Under the pieces are notes generated by a model that searched no databases, was not told the origin of the DNA, and worked only from the letters and a program-made list of their open reading frames with translations. A DNA stretch of 64,000 nt from an uncultured Spirochaetales bacterium. Lineage in GTDB: Bacteria > Spirochaetota > Spirochaetia > SPDA01 > CAZSGZ01. Position numbers and translations under genes: made by a program. The stretch is from assembly GCA_964440465.1 (NCBI GenBank), contig CAYTSI010000005.1:151-64150 (forward strand). Reading direction: 5' to 3'. Shown one piece after another: positions 2,452-58,476 of this stretch; within the stretch, counting starts at the first letter, position 1; each line of letters starts with the position of its first letter.

Positions 2452-3790
2452 GACCGCTGTCCGTCTCGCGGAGGCGGTCCGGGAGGCGGGTATCGTCGGC
2501 GCCGGCGGCGCCGGCTTCCCCACCCATAAAAAGCTCGGCGGGACCTGCCGCACGGTAATTGCCAACGGAGCCGAGTGTGAACCCCTTCTGCAGAGCGACA
2601 AATACATTATGGAAACGGAGGCGGAGAAAATCGCCGCCGCCCTCGAGCTTGCGGTGAATGAACTGCGGGCGGAAGAGGGGATTATCGCGGTAAAGGAGAA
2701 GAACAGCCGGGCTGTGGAGCGGCTCGAAGCAGCGGCGGCATCAAGGGTTGCTCTGTCCCTCTATCACCTTGAAAACTTCTATCCAGCGGGGGACGAGCAT
2801 GTGTTAGTCCATGAGATAACCGGAAAGGTAGTGCCCGAGGGGGGTATCCCGATTGCCGTGGGTGTTGTTGTCCTGAATGTGGAAACGCTGTTGAACATCT
2901 GCAACGCGGTATATGAATCGGCCCCGGTCACCCTGCGCACCGTTACCTGTACGGGAGAGGTGAAGACGCCGAAGGTGCTGCGGGTTCCGGTCGGTACGGC
3001 CATGCGGGACGTAATTCATGAGTGCGGGGGTGCTCTGGTGGAAGAACCCGCTATAATCATCGGCGGACCGATGATGGGAAAGGTCACCACCGATGTAGAT
3101 ACGCCGGTTGATAAACTGACCGGCGGAATTATCGTTTTGCCGAGGGACCACGATTGCATTCAACGGAAAACACGGCCGTTAGAAGTGCAGGTGCGGCTCT
3201 CGCGGAGCGCCTGCTGTCAGTGCGTACTGTGCAGCGAGCTCTGTCCCCGGGAGATGCTCGGGCATAATCTGTATCCGCACTTAATTATGCGGCAGATCAA
3301 TTACGGTCTTGATTTGCCGGAAGAAGCGCTGGCAGCGGCGGCGCTCTGCTGTGAATGCGGAGTGTGCGAGGTGTTCGCGTGTCCTATGGGGCTTTCCCCC
3401 TCCTTTATCAACGGAATTATCAAACAGCGGTTTGCCGAGGGGGGGTACAAGCCGGAGTTCCCCGACAGGGAGCCTAAGCCGCATGAGATGCGGGAATACC
3501 GCAAGGTGCCGGCACAGCGGATAATAGGCCGTTTGCGGCTTAACCGCTACGACGAGCCGATGTATGACCGGGGAGGCGCCGTTACACCGGAACGGGTTGA
3601 ATTGCCGCTGCGGCAGCACATCGGGGCGCCGGCGGTGCCGGTGGTTTCCCCCGGGGCAGCGGTGAAACGGGGAGACTTAATCGGGGAAATTCCCGAAGGG
3701 AGCTTAGGGGCACGGGTGCACGCCTCGGTTACGGGGACCGTTACACTGGTGGAGGAAAGCCGGATACTTATTACGGCATCAGGGGCATAA
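2435..3790 (+). CDS. PduS-like / RnfC-like flavoprotein with two 4Fe-4S clusters (BMC-associated oxidoreductase)
   Basis: 451 aa; GAGGAGFPTHKK nucleotide-binding motif; CCQCVLCSELCP and CCECGVCEVFACP ferredoxin motifs; C-terminal RnfC-type barrel-sandwich domain. Same length and domain content as Salmonella PduS (from memory). Confidence 0.75.
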   Translation: MSLESKTAVRLAEAVREAGIVGAGGAGFPTHKKLGGTCRTVIANGAECEPLLQSDKYIMETEAEKIAAALELAVNELRAEEGIIAVKEKNSRAVERLEAAAASRVALSLYHLENFYPAGDEHVLVHEITGKVVPEGGIPIAVGVVVLNVETLLNICNAVYESAPVTLRTVTCTGEVKTPKVLRVPVGTAMRDVIHECGGALVEEPAIIIGGPMMGKVTTDVDTPVDKLTGGIIVLPRDHDCIQRKTRPLEVQVRLSRSACCQCVLCSELCPREMLGHNLYPHLIMRQINYGLDLPEEALAAAALCCECGVCEVFACPMGLSPSFINGIIKQRFAEGGYKPEFPDREPKPHEMREYRKVPAQRIIGRLRLNRYDEPMYDRGGAVTPERVELPLRQHIGAPAVPVVSPGAAVKRGDLIGEIPEGSLGARVHASVTGTVTLVEESRILITASGA

Positions 3791-3793
3791 CAT

Positions 3794-4345
3794 ATGGAAT
3801 ACAGCGTAATCGGAGTACTTGAATTTTCGGCAACGGCGGCGGGCATTCTGGCCTTAGACAGCATGGTGAAGGCCGCGCCGGTGAAAATTATCGACGCGAA
3901 AACGATTTGTCCCGGCAAGTTCTATATTATCGTTACCGGAGACGTTGCCTCGGTTGATGCCGCGCTGACGGCGGGCAAAAAAGCGGGCGAGGGGTACTTG
4001 ATCGACGAGCTCTTTATTACCAACCTGCAGGAGCAGGTAATTCCGGCCATTTTAGGAACGGTGGAAACGACGAAGTGGGAATCTTTAGGCGTTATCGAAT
4101 CGTTTTCCATTGTGTCGAGTATCGTCGCGGGGGATTTGGCGGCGAAAGCGGCGGCGGTGGAGCTGCCTGAAATCAGGCTTGCTACGGGAATGGCGGGTAA
4201 ATCGTATGTAAAGATGATCGGGACGGTGCATGAGGTGGAGGTCTCCATGAAGGCGGCGAAAGAGTATGTGGGAAAGCAGGGCCTGTTATGTAAGGACGTT
4301 ATTATTCCCCACGCGCACCCGGAAATGAAGCCGTTTATTTTATAG
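3794..4345 (+). CDS. BMC-T tandem shell protein, PduT-like (possible Fe-S binding pore Cys in CPGK)
   Basis: 183 aa, two BMC domains (GVLEFSATAAGILALDSMVKAA...; SLGVIESFSIVSSIVAGDLAAKAAAVEL...); size/organisation as PduT. Confidence 0.75.
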   Translation: MEYSVIGVLEFSATAAGILALDSMVKAAPVKIIDAKTICPGKFYIIVTGDVASVDAALTAGKKAGEGYLIDELFITNLQEQVIPAILGTVETTKWESLGVIESFSIVSSIVAGDLAAKAAAVELPEIRLATGMAGKSYVKMIGTVHEVEVSMKAAKEYVGKQGLLCKDVIIPHAHPEMKPFIL

Positions 4346-4369
4346 GCACGGCGGAGGTAGGATACAGAT

Positions 4370-5815
4370 ATGCAGATAGATGAAAAAACGATACGGACGG
4401 TTGTCGAAGAGGTGTTAAAAGAGGTGAGCGCGGCGGCGGTGTCGTCCGCCTCGCCGCCCCGGACCCCTTCCCCGGCAGCCTCCTCTACATATCAGGGCTC
4501 ATTCAGTACCATGGACGCAGCCGTGCGCGCGGCGCATCAGGCGCATCTGGATTTAATGAACACGACGCTGGAAATACGGAGAAAAATGATCGATGCCATG
4601 CGGGAGACCATATGGTCCAATCTTTTTGTCCTGTCAAAAAAAGCGGTGGAGGAGACCGGCTTCGGCCGCACCGACGACAAGGTGAAGAAAAACCTTCTCG
4701 CGGCGAAGATGACACCCGGTGTGGAGGATTTAACGCCGACATCGTATACGGATGACCACGGACTTACCCTGACCGAACTCGCACCCTACGGCGTTATCGG
4801 GGCGATTGCTCCGAGTACGAACCCGACGGAGACGATTATCAGCAATGCCATTGGAATGGTAGCAGGCGGAAACACGGCGGTGTTTGGTCCCCACCCGGCC
4901 GCGAAGGAAGTTTCGAAATATACCATCTGCTTGTTAAACACGGCCATTCAGAAAGCCGGCGGACCGGCAAATGTTCTTACAACGGTGGACGAACCGACCA
5001 TCGAGGCCGCCCAGACGATGATGGACCATCCTCTCGTTTCGCTCTTAGTCGTGACCGGCGGCCCGGGAGTAGTAAAAGAGGCGATGAAACGGGCGAAAAA
5101 GGTCATTGCCGCGGGACCGGGGAACCCGCCGGTGGTGGTGGATGAAACCGCGGACATCGTGAAGGCCGGGAAAGATATCGTCGCGGGCGCGGGTTTGGAC
5201 AACAACATCATCTGTATTGACGAGAAAGAAGTCCTGGCGGTGGACTCTATTGCCGATCAGCTGAAGGCGGAAATGAAGAAAAACGGCGCCTTTGAACTGG
5301 ACCGGCAGCAGGCGGAGGCCCTGACGAAAATCGTCATTTCCGATCCCGGACGGCCGGGGCATGAAGGAATGGCGAATAAAAAATACGTGGGAAAAAACGC
5401 GTCCGTATTGGCGGACCTCATCGGCCTGAAGGTCCCCGAAGATACGCGCATCCTCATTGCCGAAGTCGACCGCGACCATCCGATGGTATGGACGGAACAG
5501 CTGATGCCCTTTATTCCGCTGGTGCGGATGAAGAGCGCCGATGAGGCGATCGATTTTGCCGTAGAATGCGAACACGGGTTTCGGCACACGGCAAGCATGC
5601 ATTCGAAAAACATCGAGCGGCTCTCAAGGATGGCGAAAGTCATGAACTGTTCCCTCTTTGTAAAAAACGGTTCGAATTTTAACGGCATGGCCTTCGGCGG
5701 CGCGGGCTACACCTCCTTTACCATTGCCAGTCCCACCGGCGACGGCTTTACCCGGGCGAGGACCTTTACCCGGGAACGGCGGTGTTCGCTCATTGATTAT
5801 TTTCGGATTGTGTAG
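4370..5815 (+). CDS. CoA-acylating aldehyde dehydrogenase (PduP/EutE family) with N-terminal encapsulation-peptide-like helix and P/S-rich linker
   Basis: 481 aa; ALDH fold motifs (VVTGGPGVVKEAMKRAKKVIAAGPGNPPVVVDETAD, NNIICIDEKEV); N-term MQIDEKTIRTVVEEVLKEV followed by AAAVSSASPPRTPSPAASS linker. Confidence 0.85.
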   Translation: MQIDEKTIRTVVEEVLKEVSAAAVSSASPPRTPSPAASSTYQGSFSTMDAAVRAAHQAHLDLMNTTLEIRRKMIDAMRETIWSNLFVLSKKAVEETGFGRTDDKVKKNLLAAKMTPGVEDLTPTSYTDDHGLTLTELAPYGVIGAIAPSTNPTETIISNAIGMVAGGNTAVFGPHPAAKEVSKYTICLLNTAIQKAGGPANVLTTVDEPTIEAAQTMMDHPLVSLLVVTGGPGVVKEAMKRAKKVIAAGPGNPPVVVDETADIVKAGKDIVAGAGLDNNIICIDEKEVLAVDSIADQLKAEMKKNGAFELDRQQAEALTKIVISDPGRPGHEGMANKKYVGKNASVLADLIGLKVPEDTRILIAEVDRDHPMVWTEQLMPFIPLVRMKSADEAIDFAVECEHGFRHTASMHSKNIERLSRMAKVMNCSLFVKNGSNFNGMAFGGAGYTSFTIASPTGDGFTRARTFTRERRCSLIDYFRIV

Positions 5816-5840
5816 GTTAAGGAAAATAGGAAGTGATGGA

Positions 5841-6113
5841 ATGAAATTAGGGAAAGTAATCGGAACGGTGGTGAGTACACAAAAGGTGGAGTCCTTCGAG
5901 GGGGTAAAGCTTCTTTTAGTACAGCCGTTAGATGAAAATTACGACGAGAAAGGCGGACCCTTAGCGGCGTGTGATACCGTTCAGGCGGGAGTTGGAGACA
6001 TTGTCCTTTATGAAGGCGGCCGGGAAGCCGCCCTGACGCTGGAAAACTGGTACAATCCGTCGGACGCGGCGGTAATGGCTATTGTCGACAGTACAAACCT
6101 GGAGGCAACCTAA
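5841..6113 (+). CDS. BMC-P pentameric vertex protein paralog 3
   Basis: MKLGKVIGTVVSTQKVESFEGVKLLLVQPL...CDTVQAGVGDIVLYEGGREA; start chosen at ATG 5841 (track ORF 5724 overlaps ALDH). Confidence 0.85.
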   Translation: MKLGKVIGTVVSTQKVESFEGVKLLLVQPLDENYDEKGGPLAACDTVQAGVGDIVLYEGGREAALTLENWYNPSDAAVMAIVDSTNLEAT

Positions 6114-6388
6114 TGCTTGTGGCTAAAGTAATCGGAACGGTTGTCGCCACGCGGAAGCATCCCGTTTTACAGGGGTATAAGCTGTTAATTGTGCAGCCGA
6201 AGGGGCCTGACGGAACGGATGCCGGCGGGATCGAGATTGCCCTCGATACGGTACAGGCAGGGACCGGCGAAACGGTGCTGCTGTTGACGGAGGGCAACTC
6301 TTCGAGGATGATTATCGGCGACGACATGGCCCCGGTACGTGCGGTGGTGGTCGGCATTATCGATGAGGTACAGTACGATGCAGTATAA
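6113..6388 (+). CDS. BMC-P pentameric vertex protein paralog 4
   Basis: [29 protein letters not shown]...ALDTVQAGTGETVLLLTEGNSSR. Confidence 0.85.
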   Translation: MLVAKVIGTVVATRKHPVLQGYKLLIVQPKGPDGTDAGGIEIALDTVQAGTGETVLLLTEGNSSRMIIGDDMAPVRAVVVGIIDEVQYDAV

Positions 6389-42909: not shown

Positions 42910-43671
42910 CTATACTCCTCGAACTTCGCAGTTGATGCCCGTTTCTCGGACGATTTCAGCCGCGCGGCGCAGTTCAGTCCCGAAATAGGGACAGAGCTCG
43001 CTGAACGCGGGGTCGAGGGTCGTGCCGGGCCTGAATTGCGTCAGAATGTACCTGCCCGCGCTTTGCGGGTCCCGGGCCGCCGAAGTATAAGCCGATTTCA
43101 GGAGTTCCGCTATTGCTGCCGCCTCCTCCGTCCCCGCTATACCCGGGGCCATGGTGGTGCGGAATTCGTGGCGCACCCCGGAAGAGATGATGATTTCAAT
43201 GCTTTGCCGCAGGGCGTTTTCCACAGTGTCGACAGCCGCGGATGCCGGAGGGACAGAGCTGCTGAGAAGGCCGTATTTCTCCGGGACCGTTTTGATGTCC
43301 ATGGCAATATAGTCGGTCCGTGCAAGCAGCGGACGAAGCAGGCGGGGAAAGCAGCCGTTCGTGTCGAGTTTTACTTTTAAACCGAGGTTTTTACAGAAAT
43401 CGATAAACCCTATCAGGTCCGTATGCAGAAGCGGTTCGCCGCCGGTAACGCAGACCCCCCCGAGGACGGAAGCGCGTTTTGCTACAAACCGCCGCACCTC
43501 TTCAATCGGCAGCAGGTCATCCGGAAACGGCGGTATAACGAGCTCGGGATTGTGGCAGTAGGGGCAGCGGAGGTTGCAGCCCGGTGTAAACACCGTGGCC
43601 GCAACCTCTCCCGGAAAGTCGATTAAGGTCGTTTTAACCAGCCCTGCCCTGGTAAGCGTCATGGCCGGCAC
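42910..43671 (-). CDS. nrdG: Anaerobic ribonucleoside-triphosphate reductase activating protein (radical SAM)
   Basis: CNLRCPYCHN CxxxCxxC motif near N-terminus; operon context. Confidence 0.8.
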   Translation of the reverse strand: MPAMTLTRAGLVKTTLIDFPGEVAATVFTPGCNLRCPYCHNPELVIPPFPDDLLPIEEVRRFVAKRASVLGGVCVTGGEPLLHTDLIGFIDFCKNLGLKVKLDTNGCFPRLLRPLLARTDYIAMDIKTVPEKYGLLSSSVPPASAAVDTVENALRQSIEIIISSGVRHEFRTTMAPGIAGTEEAAAIAELLKSAYTSAARDPQSAGRYILTQFRPGTTLDPAFSELCPYFGTELRRAAEIVRETGINCEVRGV

Positions 43672-43691
43672 ACTAACCGGAGAAAACGACC

Positions 43692-44228
43692 CTAGGAGAC
43701 GCCGGCTTCCGCAAGTGAAAACACCTGCTCCATGGTTTCGGTGTTATTCGCCCGAAACACCTCGTGATCCTGGACGTCGAAAAAGATCACCGTTGGAGAG
43801 GCAAGTACCTGATGCTCTATCGCCGAATCCATTCCTTCGGGGGTATCAACATCGACGGAACTGCCGGGCATGGAAAGCTTGTTTACATATTCTTTAACCG
43901 GAGGACAATTCGGGCATGTGCCGCGGTAAAAAAACGTATAGGAAGCGGCCGATTCCGCGATGTCCCGGGGAGGGGACCCGCCGGTGCCCATCTCTTTTCC
44001 CGCGAATTCCGGCTGCCTCGAGCCGTGTTTTATCATGTTTTTCGGTTCCGAAAACAGCTTTCGGTAGTCGTATTCCTCCCGCTTCCCCTTGTTCCAATTT
44101 GCCACGGAACGGTAATATCCGACAATCCGCGTATATACTTCGGTTTTCGTACCGGTCACGCCCCGCAGATGCTGTTGTAATTCGGCTATTTCTTTGTCCA
44201 CCTGTTCAACTGTTCGTGTCGCGTTCAT
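43692..44228 (-). CDS. Stand-alone glycyl-radical domain (NrdD C-terminal-like) fused to CxxC redoxin domain
   Basis: N-terminal TEVYTRIVGYYRSVANWNKGKREE matches NrdD glycyl-radical motif (RVCGYLG...N.GK..E); C-terminal YTFFYRGTCPNCPPV...SPTVIFFD thioredoxin/glutaredoxin fold. ATG overlaps nrdD stop (ATGA). Confidence 0.6.
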   Translation of the reverse strand: MNATRTVEQVDKEIAELQQHLRGVTGTKTEVYTRIVGYYRSVANWNKGKREEYDYRKLFSEPKNMIKHGSRQPEFAGKEMGTGGSPPRDIAESAASYTFFYRGTCPNCPPVKEYVNKLSMPGSSVDVDTPEGMDSAIEHQVLASPTVIFFDVQDHEVFRANNTETMEQVFSLAEAGVS

Positions 44229-46351
44229 TTCTTCTCTCCCTTCTGTGTTTTAACCAGTTTCTGCTTTTCTGTTTGCAGTTCATCGAGCCGCCGCTGGATT
44301 TTCTCCCGTTCTTCATCGGCGCATTTCGGGCAGGCGAAATGTTCACCGTTTAAATATCCGTGTATCGGGCAGATAGAGAACGTCGGCGAGATGGTAAAAT
44401 AGGGGAGCCTGTAATTCCAGGCAATGGCGCGCACGAGATTTCTGCATGCCTCCCAGTTGTCCACGGCTTCACCCAGAAATCCATGGAATACAGTCCCCCC
44501 TGTATATTTAATTTGAAGCTCGTCCTGATGGTCGAGGGCCTCAAAAATGTCCGAAGTAAAATCGACGGGCATCTGCGTCGAATTGGTGTAGAAGGGCTCC
44601 TGAACGCCGCTGGTAATAATGTCCGGATACCGCTCTCTGTCGTGTTTTGCCAGCCTGTAGGAGGTGCTCTCCGCGGGTGTTGCCTCAAGATTGAACAGGT
44701 CTCCCGTGTCTTCCTGCAGGTCCGCAAGGTGCCGCCGCATGTAGTCGAGAATTTCCAGAGCAAATTCGCGGCCTGTTTCGGTGGTCATGTCCTCTCCTGA
44801 AAAATTAAGAGTGCATTCGTTCATCCCCACGATGCCGATAGTCGAAAAGTGGTTGTCCAGGTGTTTCAGGTACCGTTTGGTATATGGAAACAGTCCGGCT
44901 TCCATCAGCCTGTTGATTACCTTCCGTTTAATAGTGAGGGACTCCGCGGCGGTGTCCATCAGTTCGGTAAGCCGGTGGAAGAAATCCACTTTCGTGTTCG
45001 AAAGATATCCGATTCTCGGAAGGTTGATGGTTACCACCCCGATAGACCCGGTAAACTCGTCGGAACCGAAGAGGCCGCCCCCCCGTTTCCGGAGTTCCCG
45101 CTTGTCCAGCTGCAGCCGGCAGCACATGGAGCGGACATCCCCGGGATTCAGGTCGCTGTTGACGAAATTCTGAAAGTAGGGTGTTCCGTACTTCGAGGTC
45201 ATTTCAAACAGCAGTTTCGCGTTTTCCGAATCCCAGTTGAAATCGTCGGTAATGTTGTAGGTGGGTATAGGATATTGAAACCCCCGGCCGTTGGCGTCAC
45301 CGTCAATCATAAGATGAATGAAAGCCTTGTTGATGAGGTCCATCTCCCGCTGACAGTCGCCGTAGGTAAAGTCAAGATCTTCACCCCCCACAATTGCCGG
45401 CCGTTCCTGCAGGTCGGAAGGAACATTCCAGTCCAGGGTAATGTTGGTGAACGGCGCCTGACTTCCCCAGCGGGACGGTGTATTAACACCGAAAATAAAA
45501 CTCTGGATTGCCTGTTTTACCTGTTCGAAGCTTAAATCATCAATTTTTACAAAGGGGGCCAAGTAGGTGTCGAAACTCGAAAGCGCCTGCGCGCCGGCCC
45601 ATTCGTTCTGCATAATCCCTAAAAAATTGACAATCTGCTGAATTAAGGTGTTTAAGTGCTTTGCCGGTTTCGACGTAATTTTATCGGGAACGCCGCCTAA
45701 GCCTTCCATAATCAGCTGACGCAGGGACCAGCCGGCGCAGTAGCCGGAAAACATTGACAGATCGTGGATATGAAAATCGGCATTCTGATGGGCCATGGAA
45801 ACGTCCTCGGGATAGATGTTTTTAAGCCAGTAATTTGCCGTGATGGTACCCGAATTGTGAAGGACCAGCCCGCCTAATGAAAAATTAACGTTGGCGTTTT
45901 CGTTTACCCGCCAGTCGGACTGGCTTAAGTATCCGTCCATGGTTGAGCTGATGTCCAGTGTCAGCTTTCTGGTGTCCCTTATTATCTCATGTTTGGCCCG
46001 GTAGATAATATAGGCTTTTGCAATATCGAACTGCTTCCTTTCCATCAGGACCGTTTCCACTAAGTCCTGTATCTCCTCTATTGCCGGTACCGAGTTCGGA
46101 TGCCGTGCGGACATTACCTTCCGCATCCGTTCCTCCACCTGACTTGTAAGCTCCTCTACAAAGTCGAGGTCTTCCTCTCCCCGGACTGCCCGGACCGCTT
46201 TCCCGACGGCCCCGGCAATTTTCCATCGGTCATACTTTTCCAATTTCCCGTTTCTTTTAATAACCTGCCGTATCACTGCCCCTGCAGCCGGCTTCTCGGA
46301 ACTCTCTATGCCGAGAAACTCCTCCCAATAGCTGCGTCCTGTATGCTCCAA
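44225..46351 (-). CDS. nrdD: Anaerobic (class III) ribonucleoside-triphosphate reductase catalytic subunit, apparently lacking its own glycyl-radical domain
   Basis: N-terminal ATP-cone (VIKRNGKLEKYDRWKI), core RNR-III motifs, C-terminal Zn-site CPIH...CPKC, then ends with basic coiled tail without the RxxGY motif. Confidence 0.85.
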   Translation of the reverse strand: MEHTGRSYWEEFLGIESSEKPAAGAVIRQVIKRNGKLEKYDRWKIAGAVGKAVRAVRGEEDLDFVEELTSQVEERMRKVMSARHPNSVPAIEEIQDLVETVLMERKQFDIAKAYIIYRAKHEIIRDTRKLTLDISSTMDGYLSQSDWRVNENANVNFSLGGLVLHNSGTITANYWLKNIYPEDVSMAHQNADFHIHDLSMFSGYCAGWSLRQLIMEGLGGVPDKITSKPAKHLNTLIQQIVNFLGIMQNEWAGAQALSSFDTYLAPFVKIDDLSFEQVKQAIQSFIFGVNTPSRWGSQAPFTNITLDWNVPSDLQERPAIVGGEDLDFTYGDCQREMDLINKAFIHLMIDGDANGRGFQYPIPTYNITDDFNWDSENAKLLFEMTSKYGTPYFQNFVNSDLNPGDVRSMCCRLQLDKRELRKRGGGLFGSDEFTGSIGVVTINLPRIGYLSNTKVDFFHRLTELMDTAAESLTIKRKVINRLMEAGLFPYTKRYLKHLDNHFSTIGIVGMNECTLNFSGEDMTTETGREFALEILDYMRRHLADLQEDTGDLFNLEATPAESTSYRLAKHDRERYPDIITSGVQEPFYTNSTQMPVDFTSDIFEALDHQDELQIKYTGGTVFHGFLGEAVDNWEACRNLVRAIAWNYRLPYFTISPTFSICPIHGYLNGEHFACPKCADEEREKIQRRLDELQTEKQKLVKTQKGEKK

Positions 46352-46367
46352 TTGGTCCCCCTTCCCC

Positions 46368-46832
46368 TCATGACGATTTATTTGACAACTTTCCTATTTC
46401 ATCGATAAATTGATCAACATTTTCAAACATCCGGTATACCGAGGCAAACCGGACATACCCCACCATATCAACGTCGAATAATTTTGAAAGCACCATTTCC
46501 CCTAATTTCCGCGAGGTAATCTCATGGGTGCTTTTTGCCTGCATGGCCGCTTCATCTTCCAATTCGTGAAGCATTTCTTCTACTTTCAGCTGGGGGACCG
46601 GCCGTTTTTCCAGGGAAATTTGAATACCCCGTTCGAGTTTGGTCAAATCGAACTGCTGCCGCCGGCCGTCACGCTTTACAACCATCAGCTTTTTTTCTTC
46701 AATGTGTTCGTAGGATGTGAATCGATACCCGCAGTGCAGACATTCCCTCCGCCGGCGTATGGACGTGCCGCTGGCGTTCTGTCTGGACTCGAGGACCCTG
46801 TCTTCGTGACTTTCACAAAGCGGGCATTTCAC
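46368..46832 (-). CDS. nrdR: NrdR transcriptional repressor (Zn-ribbon + ATP-cone), GTG start
   Basis: VKCPLCESHEDRVLESRQ...RRRRECLHCGYRFTSYE Zn ribbon; ATP-cone; GGAAGG RBS. Track ORF is 5'-extended. Confidence 0.85.
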   Translation of the reverse strand: MKCPLCESHEDRVLESRQNASGTSIRRRRECLHCGYRFTSYEHIEEKKLMVVKRDGRRQQFDLTKLERGIQISLEKRPVPQLKVEEMLHELEDEAAMQAKSTHEITSRKLGEMVLSKLFDVDMVGYVRFASVYRMFENVDQFIDEIGKLSNKSS

Positions 46833-46864
46833 AACCTTCCCCCAATTAACGCGGCCGCCCAAAA

Positions 46865-46880
46865 CCTCTATATATAGTGG
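46865..46880. promoter_or_regulatory. NrdR-box-like palindrome 1
   Basis: cctctatatatagtgg, matches consensus acaCwAtATaTwGtgt class (AT-rich core palindrome). Confidence 0.45.
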
Positions 46881-46907
46881 AATTAGCCGCAACAATATCA
46901 CTATATC

Positions 46908-46923
46908 ACACCATATATTGTGT
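46908..46923. promoter_or_regulatory. NrdR-box-like palindrome 2
   Basis: acaccatatattgtgt, near-perfect match to NrdR box consensus; 43 bp centre-to-centre from box 1. Confidence 0.55.
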
Positions 46924-47039
46924 TGCAACACAATTCTAATATTTTTATCGACATTTCTTGCCAAACCCTAAACGGATGTGTGTAAAATTTTCGGTAACGG
47001 GTATATACTGATACCAATGACCACTGTAAGGAGATATGA

Positions 47040-50000
47040 ATGAAACGGACCGTAATGCTGATTGCCCTTTTACTAGGCAGCATACTGCTTGTTTTTACCG
47101 GCTGCACCAGGGAGGAAGCCCCCGGGGCGAAACCTGCTACGGAGGAAAACACGGAGGAGATGAGTGAAAGCCAAAAAATCCAGCGGCAGCTGTATCAAGA
47201 CGCGGCAATTAACGAGGACCTAGCCTCCTATGACATTACCTACTACGAGCCGGACTCGATACAAACGGTAGCGGCGCCGGTGAAGGAATCGGACGAACCG
47301 TTTCAAATTGTCGATTACGGTCCCGTCGAGGAGCTTCCCCCGGAGGTCGTTTATCCGTCGATGTATGTCGTTTTCTCCCAGCCGGTGGTGCCTCTGCGGC
47401 AGCTGGGAGAACCTATGCGTTCGTCTGACATTATGTCAATTGACCCGCCCATACAAGGTACCTTCCGATGGTACGGGACCAGGCTTTTGAGTTTTGACGC
47501 CGATGAAAAGGCCCTTCCCCAGCGGCGTTACACCGTTTCAATTTCGGATACCGCGCGGTCATTAGGCGGCAAAGAGCTGACGGGAGAGAAATCCTTCAGT
47601 TTTCATACCGAATATCTTTCGATTCGGGACTTTTTTACCGGTACAGCGGAGGGGGACTACAGCTTAGATGATGTGCCCCCAGACGAAGCAAAAACAATCC
47701 ACATCGTATTTTCCCACAAGGTCAACCTCAATGTTATCAAAAATTATCTGTCCGTCGAAGCGGGAGGCCGCGGCTATAATTTTACCATTGCCCGTCCCGA
47801 CGACCCGGAAAATCGGCTGTCCGAAGAAATCAAGGAACGGACGGCAGTCCTGCATGTGGAAGGTCTGTTCCCTGAAGATACCGATGTTACCGTAACAGTA
47901 CGGAAAGGGGCGCGGAGTGAAGCCGATTTTATCGGTACGCCGGTGAACATAACACGGAGTTTTCATACCCTCAGGCCCTTCCGGTTTGTGGATTACGATA
48001 CCTGTTCCTGGTCCTTTCCCCGGAGCAGGCAGGGCGAAGCAAATCCGGTATATCTAAAGTTCAGTCATTCCGTAAAAGCCGAGGACCTCACGGGTAAGGT
48101 CCGCACCAATCCGGCAATGGAAATAACGGAAGAGAATGTCGAGGTTTACCGGGACCGGGTCCGGATCAACAATCTGCCCGTTGCCCCCGAGTCGGTATAC
48201 ACTCTGTTTCTGGACGCCGGTATTACCGACGTGTACGGGAGAAAACTACAAAGGAGCGAACAGGTCCGAGTCGAGGTCCCTCCGGCGGAACGCTACGCCT
48301 ATTTTCCGAATACCGGGCCCCGGATGCTGGAGGCCGCGTTCCCGAAGCGGATTATGTGGGAGCACCAGAATGTTTTCGAAGGCCTGTGGAAGGCGGATAC
48401 CGTTTCCGACCCCTACGGGACGTTCAGTCATGAGGAGCTCAGGCCCTACAATTTCGGAGAAATCGAGAGGAATAAACGGTATTTTGAGGTCTACAATTTC
48501 AAGGACTATTTGAACAGTGAAGGATACGGCTGGGTCGGCTTCTCCTGGAACTTCGGGAAGAGGAACAACGACGGCACCATGCCGACATGGACGAAACGGG
48601 ACCTTCGGCTGCAGGTTACCGATTTGGGCCTTACGGTCCGCCACGGTTACAATAAAATTATTACCCTTGTTACTTCCCTCGCGACAGGCGAGGCGGTAGA
48701 GGGTGCCGAGGTAAGCATTACGCGGAAACAGGCCGTTAAAAAGAGCACCGAAACGGATGCCGACGGCTTAGCGGTATTCGAGCTGGAAGAAGGGGAATAC
48801 TTTGAATATTTCGGGGTCCCCGGACGGACCTATGAAAATGAACTGCGGATACGGGTCAAGTACGGAAACGACAAAATAGAATTTAAACCGAATTACAGTC
48901 ACGATACGTGGCGTTCCAATATATACAACACCGCGGCGCCGACACAGATCGGGACCCCGAATATGGTCACCTATCTGTTTACCGACCGCAAACTGTACAA
49001 GCCGGGGGAAACGGTCACCTTCAGAGGTATCGACCGGAACCAGCAGTACGGTAAATACACGCCTTTTTCCGGCGGGTACGATATCGCCGTTCGTGAGTCC
49101 CGGTACCGCGGAAGAGAAATAACCCGTTTCCGCGGTGAAACAACCGGTTCCGGCGGGTTGTACGGGAGTTTTACCCTGCCGGAGGACGCGGAACCGGGGT
49201 GGTATGAAATTGCTTACAGCCGGGACGAAAAAACGGTCCGGGAGCTGTTCCAGGTGGCCCACTTCCGGCGGCTTCTCTTTTCCGTCGATATGTCGAGTCC
49301 CGACATTACCCATTATCAGGGGGACACGGTGAGTTTTACCGTTGCCTCGGAATATCTTGCAGGCGGGGCTCTCAGCCGGGGAAATTACGAGGTCTATTGG
49401 TCGAAACGTCCGGTTACCTACACGCCGCCGGGAGATGACTGGAAGGATTACCGGTTCGGACCGGAAGGGTACGACAGCAGACACAGCCTGGAAACTGCCG
49501 AAGGCAGCCTGCCGCCGACGGGTACTATCAATGTGAAGCAGAAAACATCACCCGAGGGCATCGAGGGGAGGGCCTATGTTTATGAAGCAGAAGCGCGAAT
49601 CAGCGACGTCAGCAATCAGCTTGTAGCAAAGCGGGAGGGTGTAACGGTCCATCCCGCCGCTTTTTACATCGGCGCCCGGGTGAAGGACGCTGCCGGCTCC
49701 TGGTATACCTTTGTGGAAAAGGGAAAGGAGATGGAGTGTGAGGTCCGGCTGGTTACACCGGAAGGCGGCCTTGTAAAAGACGGAGAAAAAATCAGCCTTA
49801 CAGGTGAATTGTATAAAATCGAGTGGAAACTGGCCCAGCAGCAGGGGGTGTATGATACCATCAACTCCCGCTGGGAGCGGGTGGAGACGAAAATCGCCGA
49901 CGAGGAAATAACCCTAAGCAGCGGAAAGGGGACGGCGCGGTTTACCCCCGGGGAGAGCGGTTCGTATTATATCAAATTTACCGCCGAGGACGCCATGGAG

Positions 50001-52820
50001 CGGAAAGCGGTAACGGAACTGAGCTTGTACGCCACCGGCGGCGGGTGGGTCCGCTGGGGGTCCGGAGACGCGGACATGCTGGAGCTGAAACCGGACAAGC
50101 AGCTGTATAAGCCGGGAGATACGGCGAAAATCCTGCTGCAGTCTCCCATTCCCGAAGGGGACTACCTGATAACCGTCGAGCGGGAGGGAATTTTCAATGA
50201 GAGAAAAATCAGCGTGGAAGGATCGGCGAAGCTGATCGAGGTCCCGATTACGGAGGACTATCTGCCGGTTGTGTATGTCAGCGTTTCCTCCTATACGGTG
50301 AGGACCGGCAAACCGGAGCATACCTACTTCGAACCCGATTTAGACAAGCCGAAGGGACTCTACGGCGTTACGCCGCTGCGGGTTGAAACGGCGGCGAAAT
50401 TGATCGATATCAGTATCGAACCGGCGGCACCTGCCTATTTGCCGGGGGCTGAGGCGGAAGTGGTCCTTACCGCGACACAAAACGGCAGGCCCGTGGAAAA
50501 CGCGGAGCTTACCTTTTTGGCAGTCGACCGCGGGGTTTTAGACCTCATCAACTACCATATTACGGACCCGCTTGCATTTTTCTACAGTGAAGGACGGTTT
50601 CCCCTGGCCGTGGAGGGGGCGGATTCCCGGTCCCTCTTAATCGACCCGGTTACCTACGACGTGCCCGACCTGGCAGGGGGCGACGGGAAAGACGGAGAAG
50701 ACGAGGGAGGCGCCGGTATGGGGATGAAAAGGCGGGAGGATTTTAACCCTACCGCGGTTTTCGAGCCGTTTCTCAGTACCGATGAAGAGGGCAGAGTAAC
50801 GGTGCGCTTTACCCTTCCCGATACCCTTACAACGTACCGCTTAACCGCCGTTGCGGTACGGGACAACAGCTTCGGTATTCAGGAAAAAGAGCTGAAGGTC
50901 CAGAATCCCATCAACGTAAAAACCGCCTTTCCGCGGCGTCTCCGCTACCGGGACACCGCCGTCGGCAGCGTGCTGCTTACCAATTTAGACGGCAAAGAGC
51001 ACGAAGTTACCCTGAATATCGAATCGGACATTCTCGGTATCGGAGGAAAAAACTCCAAGACCGTTGCCATACCCGCGGCGTCCACCTTGGAAGTGCCGTT
51101 TCAGCTCTTAGCTGTTTCGCCGGGTACGGCGGAAATTACGGTCACCACGAAGTCCGAAGTCCTGGAAGAACAGCTTGTGGAAACACTAATTGTTGAAAAG
51201 CCCTACATTTTCGAAACATTTGCCACTATCGGGCAGGCGGAGGACTCCGCGGGAGAGGGGATTGTACTTCCTTCCTATGTCGACGACGATGAGGGGAGCC
51301 TTACCATTAACCTTTCCGGTTCCCGGGCCGCCTCGTTAGGAGAGGCAATCGACTATGTAATCGGATATCCGTACGGCTGCATGGAGCAGCGGGCGAGCAA
51401 ACTCTTGCCGCTGGTGCTTTTAGAGGATTATGTCGACGATTTCGCTTTGGAAAATCCCGTCGGGGACATCAGGGGAACGGTGCAGGCCGACCTCGACTTG
51501 TGGGGAGCGTATCAGCGTTCCGACGGGGGGTTCCCCTTCTGGCCGGTCCGGGAAGGTGTATATTCATCCTACTATGCCACTGTCCGTGCCGGACACCTCC
51601 TGGCCCTCGCACGGGACCGGGGCTACACGATTCCGGACGGCCTCAGTGTTCCCGGGCTGCTCGACTATCTGGCCAATCCCCCCTCCTCCGCGCGGGGGAA
51701 CAATTACCTCATGCTCTACGGGCTCTATGTCCGCTCCCTCCTCGGTGCCGGAGTTTCCGGGGAGGCGGCCCGCTATTTTGCCAGGGGTGATGAAATTGGT
51801 ATTTCAGGATACGGATTTTTAGGGCTTATTTACCTGGACCAAAACCAGGACAATCAGGCGGAGCAGTGCCTGAACAGAATTAAGCAGTTTGTCCGGCCCG
51901 GTACCCGGTCCGTTGATCTAACGGAAACATACGAAAGCTCCTCGTTTTATAATTCCCAGGTTGAGCAGCTGGCGCTGTTTCTCATGCTTTACAGCCGGAT
52001 CGACCCCGAAAGCGATATGGTAACCAGGATTACCAACACCCTCATGGACAGACAGAAGGGGGGAATCTGGAAAAATACCGCCGATACAAACTGGGCCATT
52101 CAGGCCTTTACCTCATTACTGCAAGCCGAAGGCGGGGGAGGGCCCGATTTTGCCGCGGAGGTGACAATCGACGGTGAGACAATCGCGGAAGCTGAAATCG
52201 ATTCGATCGCGGAAATTTTCAACCGGAAGCTGCCCCTGTCGGGAAGCGTGCTTACGGGATTCGACCGGGACACCATGTATCCCCTTACATTTACAAAAGA
52301 GGGGGCGGGCCGCCTCTACTATACCGCGAGTCTGCGTTACGCAATTCCTTCGGAAATAAGCTACCCCCGGGACGAGGGGATAGGGATTGTCTATGAAATC
52401 AGCACCGTAGACGGGCAGAAGGTGGAGGGTGCTGCCCTTACCGTCGGTAAAACGTACCGTCTGAAAGCGGTAGTTTCCAGCCACCGCGGCCGGAGCTACG
52501 TAGCTGTCCGTCTGCCCGTGCCGTCGGGGGCGGAAATCCTCGATGCCGCTTTCGTTACCACACCGAAGTACGACGAATTTCAGGACCCGGACGTCGACTG
52601 GTCCCGGTATGTTCCATTCGGGTCGAAAATATTCGACAACGAAGTGCGCTATTTCTGGGACGAGTTCCCCCGGGGGCGGCAGGAGGTGAGTTTTCTCTTC
52701 CGGACGACCAGCGGCGGTGTTTTTCCCACGCCTCCGGCAACGGCGGAATGTATGTACGAACCGGAAATTTTCGGCCGGACCGGGGGGAGGATCTTTATTA
52801 TCAAACGGGATGAGGAGTAG
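47040..52820 (+). CDS. Bacterial alpha-2-macroglobulin-family lipoprotein (1926 aa)
   Basis: Lipobox VFTGC; thioester-region motif GYPYGCMEQ; very large multi-MG-domain protein. Confidence 0.85.
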   Translation: MKRTVMLIALLLGSILLVFTGCTREEAPGAKPATEENTEEMSESQKIQRQLYQDAAINEDLASYDITYYEPDSIQTVAAPVKESDEPFQIVDYGPVEELPPEVVYPSMYVVFSQPVVPLRQLGEPMRSSDIMSIDPPIQGTFRWYGTRLLSFDADEKALPQRRYTVSISDTARSLGGKELTGEKSFSFHTEYLSIRDFFTGTAEGDYSLDDVPPDEAKTIHIVFSHKVNLNVIKNYLSVEAGGRGYNFTIARPDDPENRLSEEIKERTAVLHVEGLFPEDTDVTVTVRKGARSEADFIGTPVNITRSFHTLRPFRFVDYDTCSWSFPRSRQGEANPVYLKFSHSVKAEDLTGKVRTNPAMEITEENVEVYRDRVRINNLPVAPESVYTLFLDAGITDVYGRKLQRSEQVRVEVPPAERYAYFPNTGPRMLEAAFPKRIMWEHQNVFEGLWKADTVSDPYGTFSHEELRPYNFGEIERNKRYFEVYNFKDYLNSEGYGWVGFSWNFGKRNNDGTMPTWTKRDLRLQVTDLGLTVRHGYNKIITLVTSLATGEAVEGAEVSITRKQAVKKSTETDADGLAVFELEEGEYFEYFGVPGRTYENELRIRVKYGNDKIEFKPNYSHDTWRSNIYNTAAPTQIGTPNMVTYLFTDRKLYKPGETVTFRGIDRNQQYGKYTPFSGGYDIAVRESRYRGREITRFRGETTGSGGLYGSFTLPEDAEPGWYEIAYSRDEKTVRELFQVAHFRRLLFSVDMSSPDITHYQGDTVSFTVASEYLAGGALSRGNYEVYWSKRPVTYTPPGDDWKDYRFGPEGYDSRHSLETAEGSLPPTGTINVKQKTSPEGIEGRAYVYEAEARISDVSNQLVAKREGVTVHPAAFYIGARVKDAAGSWYTFVEKGKEMECEVRLVTPEGGLVKDGEKISLTGELYKIEWKLAQQQGVYDTINSRWERVETKIADEEITLSSGKGTARFTPGESGSYYIKFTAEDAMERKAVTELSLYATGGGWVRWGSGDADMLELKPDKQLYKPGDTAKILLQSPIPEGDYLITVEREGIFNERKISVEGSAKLIEVPITEDYLPVVYVSVSSYTVRTGKPEHTYFEPDLDKPKGLYGVTPLRVETAAKLIDISIEPAAPAYLPGAEAEVVLTATQNGRPVENAELTFLAVDRGVLDLINYHITDPLAFFYSEGRFPLAVEGADSRSLLIDPVTYDVPDLAGGDGKDGEDEGGAGMGMKRREDFNPTAVFEPFLSTDEEGRVTVRFTLPDTLTTYRLTAVAVRDNSFGIQEKELKVQNPINVKTAFPRRLRYRDTAVGSVLLTNLDGKEHEVTLNIESDILGIGGKNSKTVAIPAASTLEVPFQLLAVSPGTAEITVTTKSEVLEEQLVETLIVEKPYIFETFATIGQAEDSAGEGIVLPSYVDDDEGSLTINLSGSRAASLGEAIDYVIGYPYGCMEQRASKLLPLVLLEDYVDDFALENPVGDIRGTVQADLDLWGAYQRSDGGFPFWPVREGVYSSYYATVRAGHLLALARDRGYTIPDGLSVPGLLDYLANPPSSARGNNYLMLYGLYVRSLLGAGVSGEAARYFARGDEIGISGYGFLGLIYLDQNQDNQAEQCLNRIKQFVRPGTRSVDLTETYESSSFYNSQVEQLALFLMLYSRIDPESDMVTRITNTLMDRQKGGIWKNTADTNWAIQAFTSLLQAEGGGGPDFAAEVTIDGETIAEAEIDSIAEIFNRKLPLSGSVLTGFDRDTMYPLTFTKEGAGRLYYTASLRYAIPSEISYPRDEGIGIVYEISTVDGQKVEGAALTVGKTYRLKAVVSSHRGRSYVAVRLPVPSGAEILDAAFVTTPKYDEFQDPDVDWSRYVPFGSKIFDNEVRYFWDEFPRGRQEVSFLFRTTSGGVFPTPPATAECMYEPEIFGRTGGRIFIIKRDEE

Positions 52821-56229: not shown

Positions 56230-58476
56230 TTGAAAAGAAACGGTAACTATATACCGGTAATTGTCGCGGGAATAATTATTTTCCTGTTTGTTACCGGAGA
56301 AATTACACTGCGGCATCTCCCCTTTCCCGAACTTGAGGCGTTTCAGAACAGGGCGTACAGTACAATAGTAACCGACAGAAACGGCACAATTCTCAGAATT
56401 CTTCCTCTCGAAGGAGGATTGAGGCGGGAATACGTTCCCCTCGAAGAACTGCGCCCGGAGATTGTCCGGATTTTTATCGAAAGCGAAGACAAGCGGTTCT
56501 CTTTTCACCGCGGTGTGGACGGTTTTGCCGTGCTGCGCGGTTTTTTTCAAAACAGACGAGCGGGACGGACGGTTTCGGGGGCGTCCACCATCTCCATGCA
56601 GCTGGCGGGTCTTGTCCGCCCGCGAAAGCAGACCGTCGGGGGCAAGGTCCTTGAAGCCTGGGACGCCCTTCGCCTGGAGGCAAAACTCTCGAAACGGGAA
56701 ATCCTCGAGCTGTGGCTAAACTCTCTCCCCTTCGGCAGGCAGGCGGAGGGTGTCGGGAGCGGCAGCAGGGCCTACTTCAATATATCCGCCGCGGACCTCT
56801 CAATTCCGGAGGCGGCCCTTCTTGCCGTTGTTCCGAGGCATCCGAAAAAGTACAGCCCCGTCGACAATCCAGAGGGCGCGTATGAAGGCGCGCTCCGCAA
56901 TGCCGGGAGGCTTCGTACGGACATTTCCGCACAGGAGCTGCGGAAGGCCGCCCGGGCCGCGGAGCCGGGAAATTTTATCTACCACGCGCCCCATTTTCTT
57001 CGTCAAATAGGGACAGAGCTCGGCGGCAAGCAGGGCGGCAGGGTAACAACCACATTGGATCTGGAACTTCAGCAGCATTTTCACCGTCTTTTGTCCACCT
57101 ATCAGCAGCGGTACGCCCAAAGCCGCATTACCAGCGCCGCCGGAATGCTCATCGACAATCATACGGGCGAAGTCCTTGCCTACGTCGGTTCACTCGACTT
57201 TTTCTCCGGCAGAGCGGGGGAGCAGCTGGACGGGGTAACCGTCCCGCGGCAGCCCGGGTCCTGTCTTAAACCCTTTCTTTACGCGGCGGCGCTGGAGGAC
57301 GGGTGGTATCCGAACACACTGCTTCCCGACGTCCCGCTCAATTTCGGCGGGGGCGAGGTATATGTGCCTTCGAATTTCACAAATTCTTTTTCCGGTCCCG
57401 TCAGGCTTCGGGTTGCCCTCGGGTCGTCTCTGAACGTACCGGCGGTCTATCTGTTGGATGAGATCGGGTTGGAACGGTTCGGGGAGCTGCTGCGGGCGGC
57501 GGGTTTTCACGTCGGAGCGGGCGCGCTTGAGAAGGCGGGCCTCGGCGCCGCGTTGGGCAATCTGGATGTCTCCCTCCTGGAACTGACCCGGGGCTTCGCC
57601 CTTTTCCCCCGGCGTGGTGTGCCCCTGGAGCTTTCATGGACACTCCCCGAAGTTTTCGAAGGGCCCTCCCCCGCGGGACGGGCCGTTTCCGAATACACCG
57701 CCGATATTATCTGCGACATCCTCTCGGACCCGGCGGCGAGGGCCCGGGGGTTCGGGTACAATTCCGCTTTTACCCTTCCCTTTCCCGCCATGTTTAAAAC
57801 CGGGACAACCGATCAGTTTCAGCACATCTGGGCCCTTGCCGCGACGCCGGATTATACCGTGGGCATATGGATGGGAAACAACACCGGGGAAACGGTAATC
57901 GGCCGGACCGGTTCCTCCGTCCCCGCGCGGATAGCGGCTGAAGTGCTTACCTTCGCGCGGAAGGGGAGGGCGGAATTCCCGGTCCCGGCGGGGGCGGTGC
58001 CGGTGGAGATCTGCACAGTATCCGGGCAGCGGGGGACGGAGCTCTGTCCCTCCGTTGTTACCGAATACCTGCCGGCGGCCGGCGGGGAAGGGGCTGTACC
58101 CGGTCCCTGTACATTTCATATACTGCGAAACGGTACGGTAACAACCGAGTATCCGGAAAAATATCATGCATGGCTGCGGGAGCTGGGCCGGTCGGGGGGA
58201 TTTTCCTTCTCCGGCGGAGAAGGCCTTGAAATTATTCACCCCCGCGGCGGAGCGGTATTTTACTATGACCCGACAGTTTCCGCCGGAGTCCAGGCGCTGC
58301 GGGTCGAGGCAGCTGCCGGCAGGCCCGGGGCCTGCACACTCTATGTAAACGGCGAAAGGGCGGGTACTGTTTTCCATCCCCCCTATGTATGGTTTTTGCC
58401 GCTTCAGCGGGGAGCGTGGGAATTGACCGTATCGAATACCGGTTCCGAGGCGACGGTGCGCGTCGAAGTCCGCTAA
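56230..58476 (+). CDS. pbpC: Penicillin-binding protein 1C (GT51 transglycosylase + transpeptidase + C-terminal domain), TTG start
   Basis: EDKRFSFHRGVD and GASTISMQLA GT51 motifs; transpeptidase domain; co-localised with alpha-2-macroglobulin as in many bacteria. Confidence 0.8.
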   Translation: MKRNGNYIPVIVAGIIIFLFVTGEITLRHLPFPELEAFQNRAYSTIVTDRNGTILRILPLEGGLRREYVPLEELRPEIVRIFIESEDKRFSFHRGVDGFAVLRGFFQNRRAGRTVSGASTISMQLAGLVRPRKQTVGGKVLEAWDALRLEAKLSKREILELWLNSLPFGRQAEGVGSGSRAYFNISAADLSIPEAALLAVVPRHPKKYSPVDNPEGAYEGALRNAGRLRTDISAQELRKAARAAEPGNFIYHAPHFLRQIGTELGGKQGGRVTTTLDLELQQHFHRLLSTYQQRYAQSRITSAAGMLIDNHTGEVLAYVGSLDFFSGRAGEQLDGVTVPRQPGSCLKPFLYAAALEDGWYPNTLLPDVPLNFGGGEVYVPSNFTNSFSGPVRLRVALGSSLNVPAVYLLDEIGLERFGELLRAAGFHVGAGALEKAGLGAALGNLDVSLLELTRGFALFPRRGVPLELSWTLPEVFEGPSPAGRAVSEYTADIICDILSDPAARARGFGYNSAFTLPFPAMFKTGTTDQFQHIWALAATPDYTVGIWMGNNTGETVIGRTGSSVPARIAAEVLTFARKGRAEFPVPAGAVPVEICTVSGQRGTELCPSVVTEYLPAAGGEGAVPGPCTFHILRNGTVTTEYPEKYHAWLRELGRSGGFSFSGGEGLEIIHPRGGAVFYYDPTVSAGVQALRVEAAAGRPGACTLYVNGERAGTVFHPPYVWFLPLQRGAWELTVSNTGSEATVRVEVR
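58033..58050. repeat. Palindromic head-to-head pair of the over-represented motif (GGGACgGAGC|TCTGTCCC)
   Basis: gggacggagctctgtccc inside pbpC coding sequence. Confidence 0.6.

Follow-up and report, generated by a model that had tools for sequence, protein, structure and literature searches.

A conserved gene split in spirochaete class III ribonucleotide reductase, with a predicted glycyl-radical subunit fused to a thioredoxin-fold domain

Introduction

Canonical class III ribonucleotide reductases (RNRs) carry the catalytic barrel and the glycyl-radical loop on one chain, NrdD. Among them, the PRK08270-type double-cysteine enzymes and the NrdD2 enzymes of Neisseria bacilliformis and Thermotoga maritima (PDB 4COI, 4U3E) are the nearest single-chain kin of the system described here, and the NrdD2 subtype is known to be thioredoxin-dependent (PMC4493059, PMC9669993). 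In this study we analyzed a 64 000-nucleotide (nt) stretch of DNA from an uncultured Spirochaetales bacterium (contig CAYTSI010000005.1, hereafter the window), in which an nrdD gene ends before the radical loop and the next open reading frame (ORF) begins with a segment that matches that loop and continues into a thioredoxin-fold domain. From the sequence evidence set out below, we consider that the two products would together make up an obligate two-subunit class III RNR in which the reductant is part of the radical subunit, with a probability of about 0.78.

Divided RNR genes and RNR–redoxin fusions have each been described in other settings. The NrdJb module of split class II RNRs is a cysteine-rich domain that shuttles reducing equivalents (PMC5704485), and in phages, group I introns, inteins or homing endonucleases interrupt nrdD genes (PMC3653736). 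A fused glutaredoxin serves as the RNR reductant in Facklamia ignava NrdB (PMC6187632), and a table of the same 2018 paper includes a single RefSeq example of a grx::nrdD fusion, from Lachnospiraceae bacterium TWA4 (PMC6187632). Our literature search found no cellular NrdD without a radical loop and no stand-alone radical-loop/thioredoxin protein, with a mention in Wei et al. 2014 or RNRdb being possible, and no such split is described in the 2022 phylogeny papers, in an analysis from the same year of insertions and extensions in RNRs or in a review on glycyl radical enzymes dated 2026. An initial annotation of the window, made from the sequence alone, had regarded the arrangement as undescribed. 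For the cellular split this agrees with what we found in the literature, while the redoxin fusion has had the one mention given above.

Results

The large subunit ends before the glycyl-radical loop

The 708-amino acid (aa) product of nrdD matches the Pfam NRDD profile (PF13597) over positions 1–538 of 562 (E 7e-178), scores 1087 bits against PRK08270 (cut-off 548) and 482 bits against TIGR02487 (cut-off 326), and is 73–83% identical to more than 100 spirochaete NrdDs of about 700–710 aa. It comprises the ATP-cone and a ten-stranded barrel. The two cysteines of its finger loop, C410 and C411, are invariant among the aligned relatives, and Cys204 in the first barrel strand aligns with Cys125 of T. 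maritima NrdD. Glu556 aligns with T. maritima residue 495, the column of the proton-donor glutamate (PMC9669993 methods). Two features of the NrdD2 subtype are thus found here, the adjacent third cysteine (C410–C411) and the glutamate equivalent to Glu495. The third, a finger loop free of methionine, which marks the subclades that depend on thioredoxin only, is not, as Met409 is present and places the enzyme in the majority group with methionine, double cysteine and glutamate. Enzymes of that group could use formate, thioredoxin or both (PMC9669993).

The metal-site motif near the C-terminus appears by alignment to correspond to the CxxC...CxxC motif of Prevotella copri NrdD and to the matching region of T. 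maritima NrdD. Its second ligand is histidine (CxxH...CxxC) here and in all split and fused relatives seen, and cysteine in the P. copri enzyme. The chain then reads ...CPIHGYLNGEHFACPKC and closes with a 31-residue Glu/Lys-rich tail. It stops about 10 residues short of the position at which the glycyl-radical loop starts in a canonical NrdD, and there is no RxxGY motif after the metal site. All sequence features expected of a class III enzyme are present except for RxxGY on the barrel chain, and this motif is supplied in trans by the next gene. The 64-kb window has no second glycyl-radical motif and no second intact NrdD; the RIVGYY of the small ORF is the sole one. Source records annotate the large gene as a complete NrdD, and the automatic annotation of the JGI labels the core ‘(formate)’.

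The small subunit combines an NrdD-type radical loop with a thioredoxin fold

Residues 28–59 of the 178-aa small product match positions 532–562 of the NRDD profile, which are its last 31, with 30.1 bits (gathering cut-off 26.2). The profile is therefore divided in a complementary manner, with positions 1–538 on the large product and 532–562 on the small one. The small ORF also matches the extreme C-termini of three NCBIfam NrdD models, for example PRK08579 at positions 573–622 of 624 and PRK08270 at 648–682 of 684. The glycyl-radical motif is invariant in the small-protein alignment, as are C105, C108 and P145. The small protein matched no Pfam or NCBIfam model of its own, and its gene is variously annotated in the source records as ‘hypothetical’, ‘glutaredoxin’ or ‘ribonucleoside-triphosphate reductase’.

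The segment following the loop is a disordered linker with a predicted local distance difference test (pLDDT) score below 50 at residues 65–84, unconserved alignment columns and variable length; across homologues, the radical motif and the CxxC motif are separated by 24 to 141 residues. Beyond it, residues 90–170 were modeled by AlphaFold2 with a pLDDT of 91–97 and the topology beta-alpha-beta-alpha-beta-beta-alpha. A Foldseek search with this model returned many thioredoxins with probability 1.00, and a profile search of the PDB gave an MJ0307-type thioredoxin (1fo5) and the Pyrococcus furiosus disulfide oxidoreductase (1a8l) as nearest structures; at the family level, the CxxC domain has a weak Glutaredoxin/MJ0307-thioredoxin match. 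The predicted position of CxxC at the N-terminus of helix 1, together with the cis-Pro loop, is that of the thioredoxin superfamily.

These results bear on several statements of the initial annotation. Its description of an NrdD with ATP-cone, catalytic core and CPIH...CPKC site and no RxxGY agrees with the profile matches and the motif search, and its assignment of the small-ORF N-terminus to the NrdD radical loop is backed by the alignment with the end of the NRDD profile above the gathering score. The redoxin fusion with a CPNC motif is likewise substantiated by the modeled fold, the Foldseek matches and the invariant cysteines. The alignment it proposed to PF01228, the Gly_radical family of pyruvate formate-lyase (PFL) type, did not bear out, as the small ORF has no match at E up to 0.1 and the segment is an NrdD-type C-terminus; the likeness that was drawn to GrcA (YfiD) consequently stands as an analogy but not as a family relationship.

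The split is conserved across a large clade of spirochaetes

In the window, the TGA of nrdD and the ATG of the small ORF share the four nucleotides ATGA, and the small gene is, as read from this sequence, translationally coupled to nrdD. Three independent assemblies, two of ENA microbial-mat runs and one of a JGI metagenome, contain this exact protein pair with its 4-nt overlap. The small ORF has 993 related protein clusters at 90% identity, the best 120 of which are all 152–196 aa long. An exhaustive HMMER search of 1.8 billion representatives (50% identity) gave 274 matches with E no higher than 1e-10, the top 150 of which all measure 102 to 320 aa. Scanning one genome per species produced 570 confirmed matches, and the locus counts given here cover the best 80.

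These best 80 loci belong nearly all to Spirochaetota (Treponema, Treponemataceae, Spirochaetaceae and Marispirochaeta), with Treponema socranskii ATCC 35535 and Treponema bryantii NK4A124 as cultured carriers. In 72 of them, the small gene is directly preceded by an NrdD gene whose product, about 700–725 aa long, has the CCR finger loop, CPxH...CxxC and a charged tail, and lacks the radical motif. Seven of the other eight are interrupted by contig ends, and in one (L015) the genes are unlinked. An ORF of about 250 aa with the activase motif CxxxCxxC follows the small gene in most related loci. The distance from the nrdD stop to the start of the small gene varies between −4 and more than 100 nt, in all three relative frames. 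A split conserved over such gaps and frames is therefore no sequencing error, no recent pseudogene and no case of programmed frameshifting. A large clade of spirochaetes shares it as a conserved trait.

Two other explanations for adjacent partial genes were considered and rejected. A programmed frameshift or read-through into one chain is ruled out by the gaps of −4 to more than 100 nt in all three frames. A split intein or intron is ruled out by the 4-nt overlap, the short flanks (31 and about 25 residues, forming heptad helices) and the lack of matches to intein families.

Among 265 retrieved stand-alone homologues (102–320 aa), CxxC is present in every one, in the form CPNC in 192, and RIVGY[YFL] is found in 254; the remaining 11 may be fragments. 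The core is more highly conserved (73–83% identity) than the small protein (about 45–50%), a difference that we attribute to the linker and to the surface of the thioredoxin domain. Two loci stand apart. At L015 (positions 4001–4495, uncultured Treponema), neither an nrdD in the 4 kb upstream of the small gene nor a recognizable nrdG downstream of it is present, so the small-subunit gene need not be linked to that for the core. In the other, a record labeled ‘uncultured Collinsella sp.’ (L067), the split operon is typical of the spirochaete type and its contig lies in an actinobacterial bin; misbinning, and not horizontal transfer, is the most likely cause.

Heptad helices flank the break

Compared with the fused forms described below, the split forms are longer by about 50 residues at precisely the point of the break, and these residues make up two amphipathic helices that were seen in split forms only. 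In the C-terminal tail of NrdD, positions +8, +12, +15 and +22 after the CxxC are hydrophobic in 92–100% of 119 split NrdDs, and the rest of the tail is nearly all E, K or R. The N-terminus of the small protein has a corresponding pattern, with hydrophobic residues at −19, −16, −12, −9, −5 and −2 from the Gly of GxxTEVY in 72–99% of 233 homologues. The two helices probably form an antiparallel coiled coil that re-joins the chains in the manner of a leucine zipper. One helix departs from the metal site and its counterpart has to lead back there; the antiparallel arrangement is the simplest reading of these heptads. The Lys/Glu-rich tail noted in the initial annotation is thus present, and can be described further as a conserved heptad helix paired with a second one on the small protein.

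Fused relatives suggest fusion before fission

One relative (P0379) is a single chain of 869 aa with a core 76% identical to that of the window (locus L081, positions 3618–6227). Its layout is ...CPRC-GGEAEVYTRIVGYYRSVRNWNKGKQEE-linker-...HCPNCPPV..., so that the CPRC of the metal site runs straight into GGEAEVYTRIVGYY and neither heptad helix is present. The gene lies in an nrdR-nrdD-nrdG operon that adjoins a rubrerythrin gene. A search with the C-terminal 260 residues of P0379 returned further fused forms from Clostridia, Oscillospiraceae, Sphaerochaeta and Latescibacteria. In all fused forms the radical motif follows the metal site within 5–6 residues, with CPxC and then EVY(S/T)RI(V/T)GYY, and the chain ends in a CxxC thioredoxin fold. 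The matches of this search were mostly contig-end fragments and did not include P0379 itself, so it indicates that fused forms are frequent but not how frequent. The word-index search seems to under-report long proteins.

Because fused forms are widespread in other bacteria, the redoxin fusion is, on these sequences, older and broader than the split. In a rough neighbour-joining tree of the last 200 core residues, built from partly fragmentary sequences, the split enzymes form one clade, the fused P0379 and P0386 are its sister, and the Clostridia-type fused forms lie further out. This topology fits an order in which the thioredoxin-fold domain was probably first fused to a single-chain NrdD, followed by one fission. 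The spirochaete clade would then have arisen by a single gene fission between metal site and radical loop, along with acquisition of the two helices. The initial annotation had taken the split to be genuine rather than a sequencing frameshift and had proposed a search for it in other genomes; the three assemblies, the conservation and the variable junctions confirm the first, and the search recovered the same split at the 72 loci. The separate radical/redoxin ORF that it described is accordingly a conserved arrangement as regards the split, while the redoxin fusion itself is not peculiar to it.

Operon and genomic neighbourhood

The coordinates of all features are given in Table 1. For nrdR, the ORF from TTG 46964 is probably too long and the true start is probably GTG 46832 (154 aa, MKCP...), because the TIGR00244 alignment (E 4.6e-50) begins at residue 45 of the long ORF and the three independent assemblies call a 154-aa gene. 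The assemblies also call a 250-aa NrdG, which would begin at about 43662; the start listed in the table is 20 nt downstream of the small-ORF stop. Upstream of nrdR are two palindromes whose starts are 43 nt apart and which overlap a promoter-like site. As read from the sequence, they resemble the NrdR-box consensus and are candidate NrdR sites. The arrangement suggests that NrdR could autoregulate the whole nrdR-nrdD-small-nrdG operon.

Genes neighbouring the operon encode an LPP20-like lipoprotein, a PEGA protein, an alpha-2-macroglobulin, a penicillin amidase, FtsH and PBP1C. The bacterial alpha-2-macroglobulin gene (1926 aa, 47040–52820, plus strand) is divergent from the operon, and about 3.4 kb beyond it is a gene for a PBP1C-type penicillin-binding protein with a BiPBP_C domain (56230–58476, plus strand). 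The alpha-2-macroglobulin and PBP1C gene families often co-occur.

Table 1. Features of the split nrdD operon in the window (coordinates in nt of the 64-kb window)
Feature	Coordinates	Strand	Description	Basis
Operon nrdR–nrdD–small ORF–nrdG	42910–46964	minus	four co-directional genes	
Promoter-like site with two NrdR-box-like palindromes	46865–46928	minus	upstream of nrdR	read from sequence
Promoter-like match	46928–46900	minus	TTGCAA-17-TATAGT, upstream of nrdR	
NrdR-box-like palindrome	46908–46923	minus	ACACAATATATGGTGT	read from sequence
NrdR-box-like palindrome	46865–46880	minus	CCACTATATATAGAGG	read from sequence
nrdR	46368–46832 (long ORF reaches 46964)	minus	transcriptional repressor of RNR genes	TIGR00244, Zn_ribbon_NrdR, ATP-cone
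nrdD, large subunit	44225–46351	minus	708 aa; ATP-cone, catalytic barrel and metal site, without glycyl-radical loop	Pfam/NCBIfam
ATP-cone	45986–46267	minus	aa 29–122 of NrdD	PF03477, E 6e-21
Finger-loop motif	45116–45127	minus	M409-C410-C411-R412, double-cysteine type with leading Met	aligns with SCCR of T. maritima NrdD
Glu556 codon	44684–44686	minus	equivalent to T. maritima Glu495	phmmer alignment to 4coi_A, FNLEA vs FNIEQ
Metal-site motif	44321–44371	minus	C661-x2-H664...C674-x2-C677, kept on large subunit	conserved in tails at related loci
C-terminal NrdD tail	44228–44320	minus	aa 678–708, charged amphipathic heptad helix	periodicity in split NrdDs
Junction	44225–44242	minus	Shine-Dalgarno-like AAGGGAGAG (44234–44242), 5-nt spacer, ATGA (44225–44228)	
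Small subunit	43692–44228	minus	178 aa; N-terminal heptad helix, glycyl-radical loop, linker, thioredoxin-fold domain	
N-terminal helix of small subunit	44157–44219	minus	aa about 4–24, amphipathic heptad helix	periodicity; AlphaFold2 helix 7–22
Glycyl-radical segment	44049–44153	minus	aa 26–60, GTKTEVYTRIVGYYRSVANWNKGKREEYDYRKLF	NRDD, PRK08579 and PRK08270 C-termini
Predicted radical glycine Gly37	44118–44120 (codon)	minus	in RIVGYY, residues 34–39	motif
Linker	43950–44048	minus	aa 61–93, variable, low complexity	AlphaFold2 and alignment
Thioredoxin-fold domain	43704–43949	minus	aa 94–175; cis-Pro motif P145-T-V	AlphaFold2, Foldseek, profile matches
CPNC motif	43905–43916	minus	C105-P-N-C108	within thioredoxin-fold domain
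nrdG	42910–43671	minus	radical S-adenosylmethionine (SAM) activase	TIGR02495 NrdG2, E 1.9e-50

Discussion

Proposed mechanism

In the enzyme that we propose, the small subunit would dock on the large one through the antiparallel coiled coil of the two heptad helices, and the docked loop would insert into the barrel with Gly37 facing the finger-loop cysteine, as in the single-chain NrdDs of T4 and T. maritima. NrdG would abstract the Gly37 hydrogen and so install the radical, with the small subunit either free or docked. The disulfide between Cys204 and Cys410/411 expected at each turnover would be that formed by double-cysteine (NrdD2-like) enzymes, and the thioredoxin-fold domain, on its flexible linker of about 35 residues, would re-reduce it through the invariant CxxC and would in turn be recycled by another reductase. 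We tentatively go further, at slightly less than even odds, and suggest that the glycyl radical resides permanently on a detachable small subunit, in an alpha/beta organization like that of class I, as the first such obligate separate radical domain; zipper, loop and tethered reductant would then form one previously undescribed module that NrdG could activate off the enzyme and that could be exchanged after oxygen damage.

A number of points weigh against the two-subunit enzyme or parts of it. The complex, the Gly37 radical, the redox activity of the CxxC and the source of electrons are all predictions, and the coiled-coil docking derives from sequence periodicity. The order of fusion and fission comes from a neighbour-joining tree on 200 residues with partly fragmentary sequences. 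No gene for a thioredoxin reductase or a ferredoxin:disulfide reductase was found near the operon, and with the finger-loop Met retained, the redoxin domain might not be the catalytic reductant. That only the 20-kDa subunit would be lost when oxygen cleaves the chain at the glycyl radical, and could be exchanged, is speculative; our data lend no support to an advantage in oxygen repair, and the fission could be neutral.

Alternative explanations

It is quite possible, although we would not favour it, that the enzyme works as proposed and that the fission is selectively neutral, tolerated as the helices compensate for it and providing no new capability over a fused NrdD-thioredoxin. Fused and split orthologues occur in the same operon, the break is at a domain boundary, other split RNRs such as NrdJa/NrdJb have no known benefit (PMC5704485), and at least one genome (L015) has the small gene away from nrdD, as would be expected of an ordinary subunit gene. 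On the other hand, the split persists across a large and diverse clade with no reversion among the best 80 loci, and the conserved zipper helices indicate selection to keep the chains together, though this would equally fit a neutral ratchet.

Many spirochaetes live at oxic–anoxic interfaces, and the window sequence was also assembled from microbial-mat metagenomes. Both would suit an exchangeable radical cartridge, a built-in spare part resembling GrcA that saves the 80-kDa core after oxygen cleavage. We consider this role for the small protein unlikely, while acknowledging that oxygen-induced cleavage at the NrdD glycyl radical is established (PMC5704485), that GrcA rescues oxygen-damaged PFL (PMC8683613), and that non-covalent docking through a short coiled coil would permit exchange. 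On the other hand, the small gene is coupled 1:1 with nrdD in this window without separate regulation, and the cleaved remnant (N-terminal helix and half of the loop) would go on occupying the docking helix and might block exchange.

It seems improbable that the thioredoxin-fold domain is something other than the turnover reductant, with formate reducing the substrate and the CxxC protecting or repairing the finger-loop or metal-site cysteines or assisting NrdG. The finger-loop Met supports formate chemistry in Escherichia coli NrdD, enzymes with Met and double Cys may use either reductant (PMC9669993), and the JGI label of the core points the same way; yet the enzyme has the third Cys and the Glu495 equivalent, both of which are associated with disulfide chemistry, all 265 of the 265 homologues keep the CxxC, many unsplit NrdDs of the family carry this domain as a fusion, and in class I a fused glutaredoxin has been proven to act as an RNR reductant (PMC6187632).

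There is next to no chance that a frameshift from sequencing or assembly, or the decay of a single-chain nrdD into a pseudogene, accounts for the split: a 1-nt frame offset with an ATGA overlap could come from a single-base indel, and one fused relative of 869 aa (P0379) is known, but the same junction recurs in three independent assemblies, 72 of the 80 best loci are split with gaps of −4 to more than 100 nt in all three frames, both products are conserved (core 73–83% identical, radical motif invariant), and removal of the stop would give no canonical enzyme, as about 50 extra residues (the two helices) lie between metal site and radical loop.

Implications

How the buried radical loop exits the barrel to meet the activase is still unclear in glycyl radical enzymes. 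If the two-subunit enzyme is real, its free-standing 20-kDa radical loop would be a tractable substrate for trapping an activase-loop complex and for measuring loop insertion. It would also mean that anaerobic RNRs, like the aerobic class I, can separate the radical-harbouring chain from the catalytic one, and it would tie the choice between formate and thioredoxin as reductant to a built-in redoxin. Treponema includes oral and gut species, where an essential and structurally distinct RNR could be of interest.

Comparison with known systems

With the canonical class III enzymes, the spirochaete system shares the ATP-cone, the barrel, the CCR finger loop, the Cys125 position, the Glu495 equivalent, the metal site and an adjacent NrdG, as well as RxxGY followed by NxGKxxE (RIVGYY…NWNKGKREE in the small subunit). 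It differs from them in having the radical loop on a separate chain with a thioredoxin-fold domain, about 50 extra residues, and MCCR in place of SCCR. The unsplit NrdD-redoxin fusions share the core family, the radical motif, the linker, the CPNC/CxxC domain and the nrdR-nrdD-nrdG operon, but are single chains without the heptad helices.

Other RNRs in pieces or with attached redoxins are less similar. The pieces of phage nrdD genes are re-joined by RNA or protein splicing or have decayed, whereas here there is a 4-nt overlap, there are no intein motifs and the products stay separate. The split class II RNR NrdJa/NrdJb of Pseudomonas aeruginosa and some phages likewise has its chain in two adjacent genes with the C-terminal module second, but it belongs to class II and has no glycyl radical, and its separated module is a reductant shuttle instead of the radical site. 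In the Grx::ATP-cone::NrdB of F. ignava, a redoxin is likewise fused to the radical-harbouring RNR subunit and acts as the reductant of the holoenzyme (PMC6187632); the enzyme belongs to class I, its radical subunit is of the metal/tyrosyl type, and its glutaredoxin is N-terminal and glutathione-dependent.

GrcA is like the small subunit in being a small stand-alone radical-loop protein that supplies the radical to a barrel in trans, presumably with the cognate radical-SAM activase. It differs in having a PFL-type PF01228 domain with no docking helix and no redoxin domain. GrcA also backs up a partner with its own radical domain, whereas the partner NrdD here has no loop at every related locus where this is visible; the small protein would therefore be obligatory, unlike GrcA.

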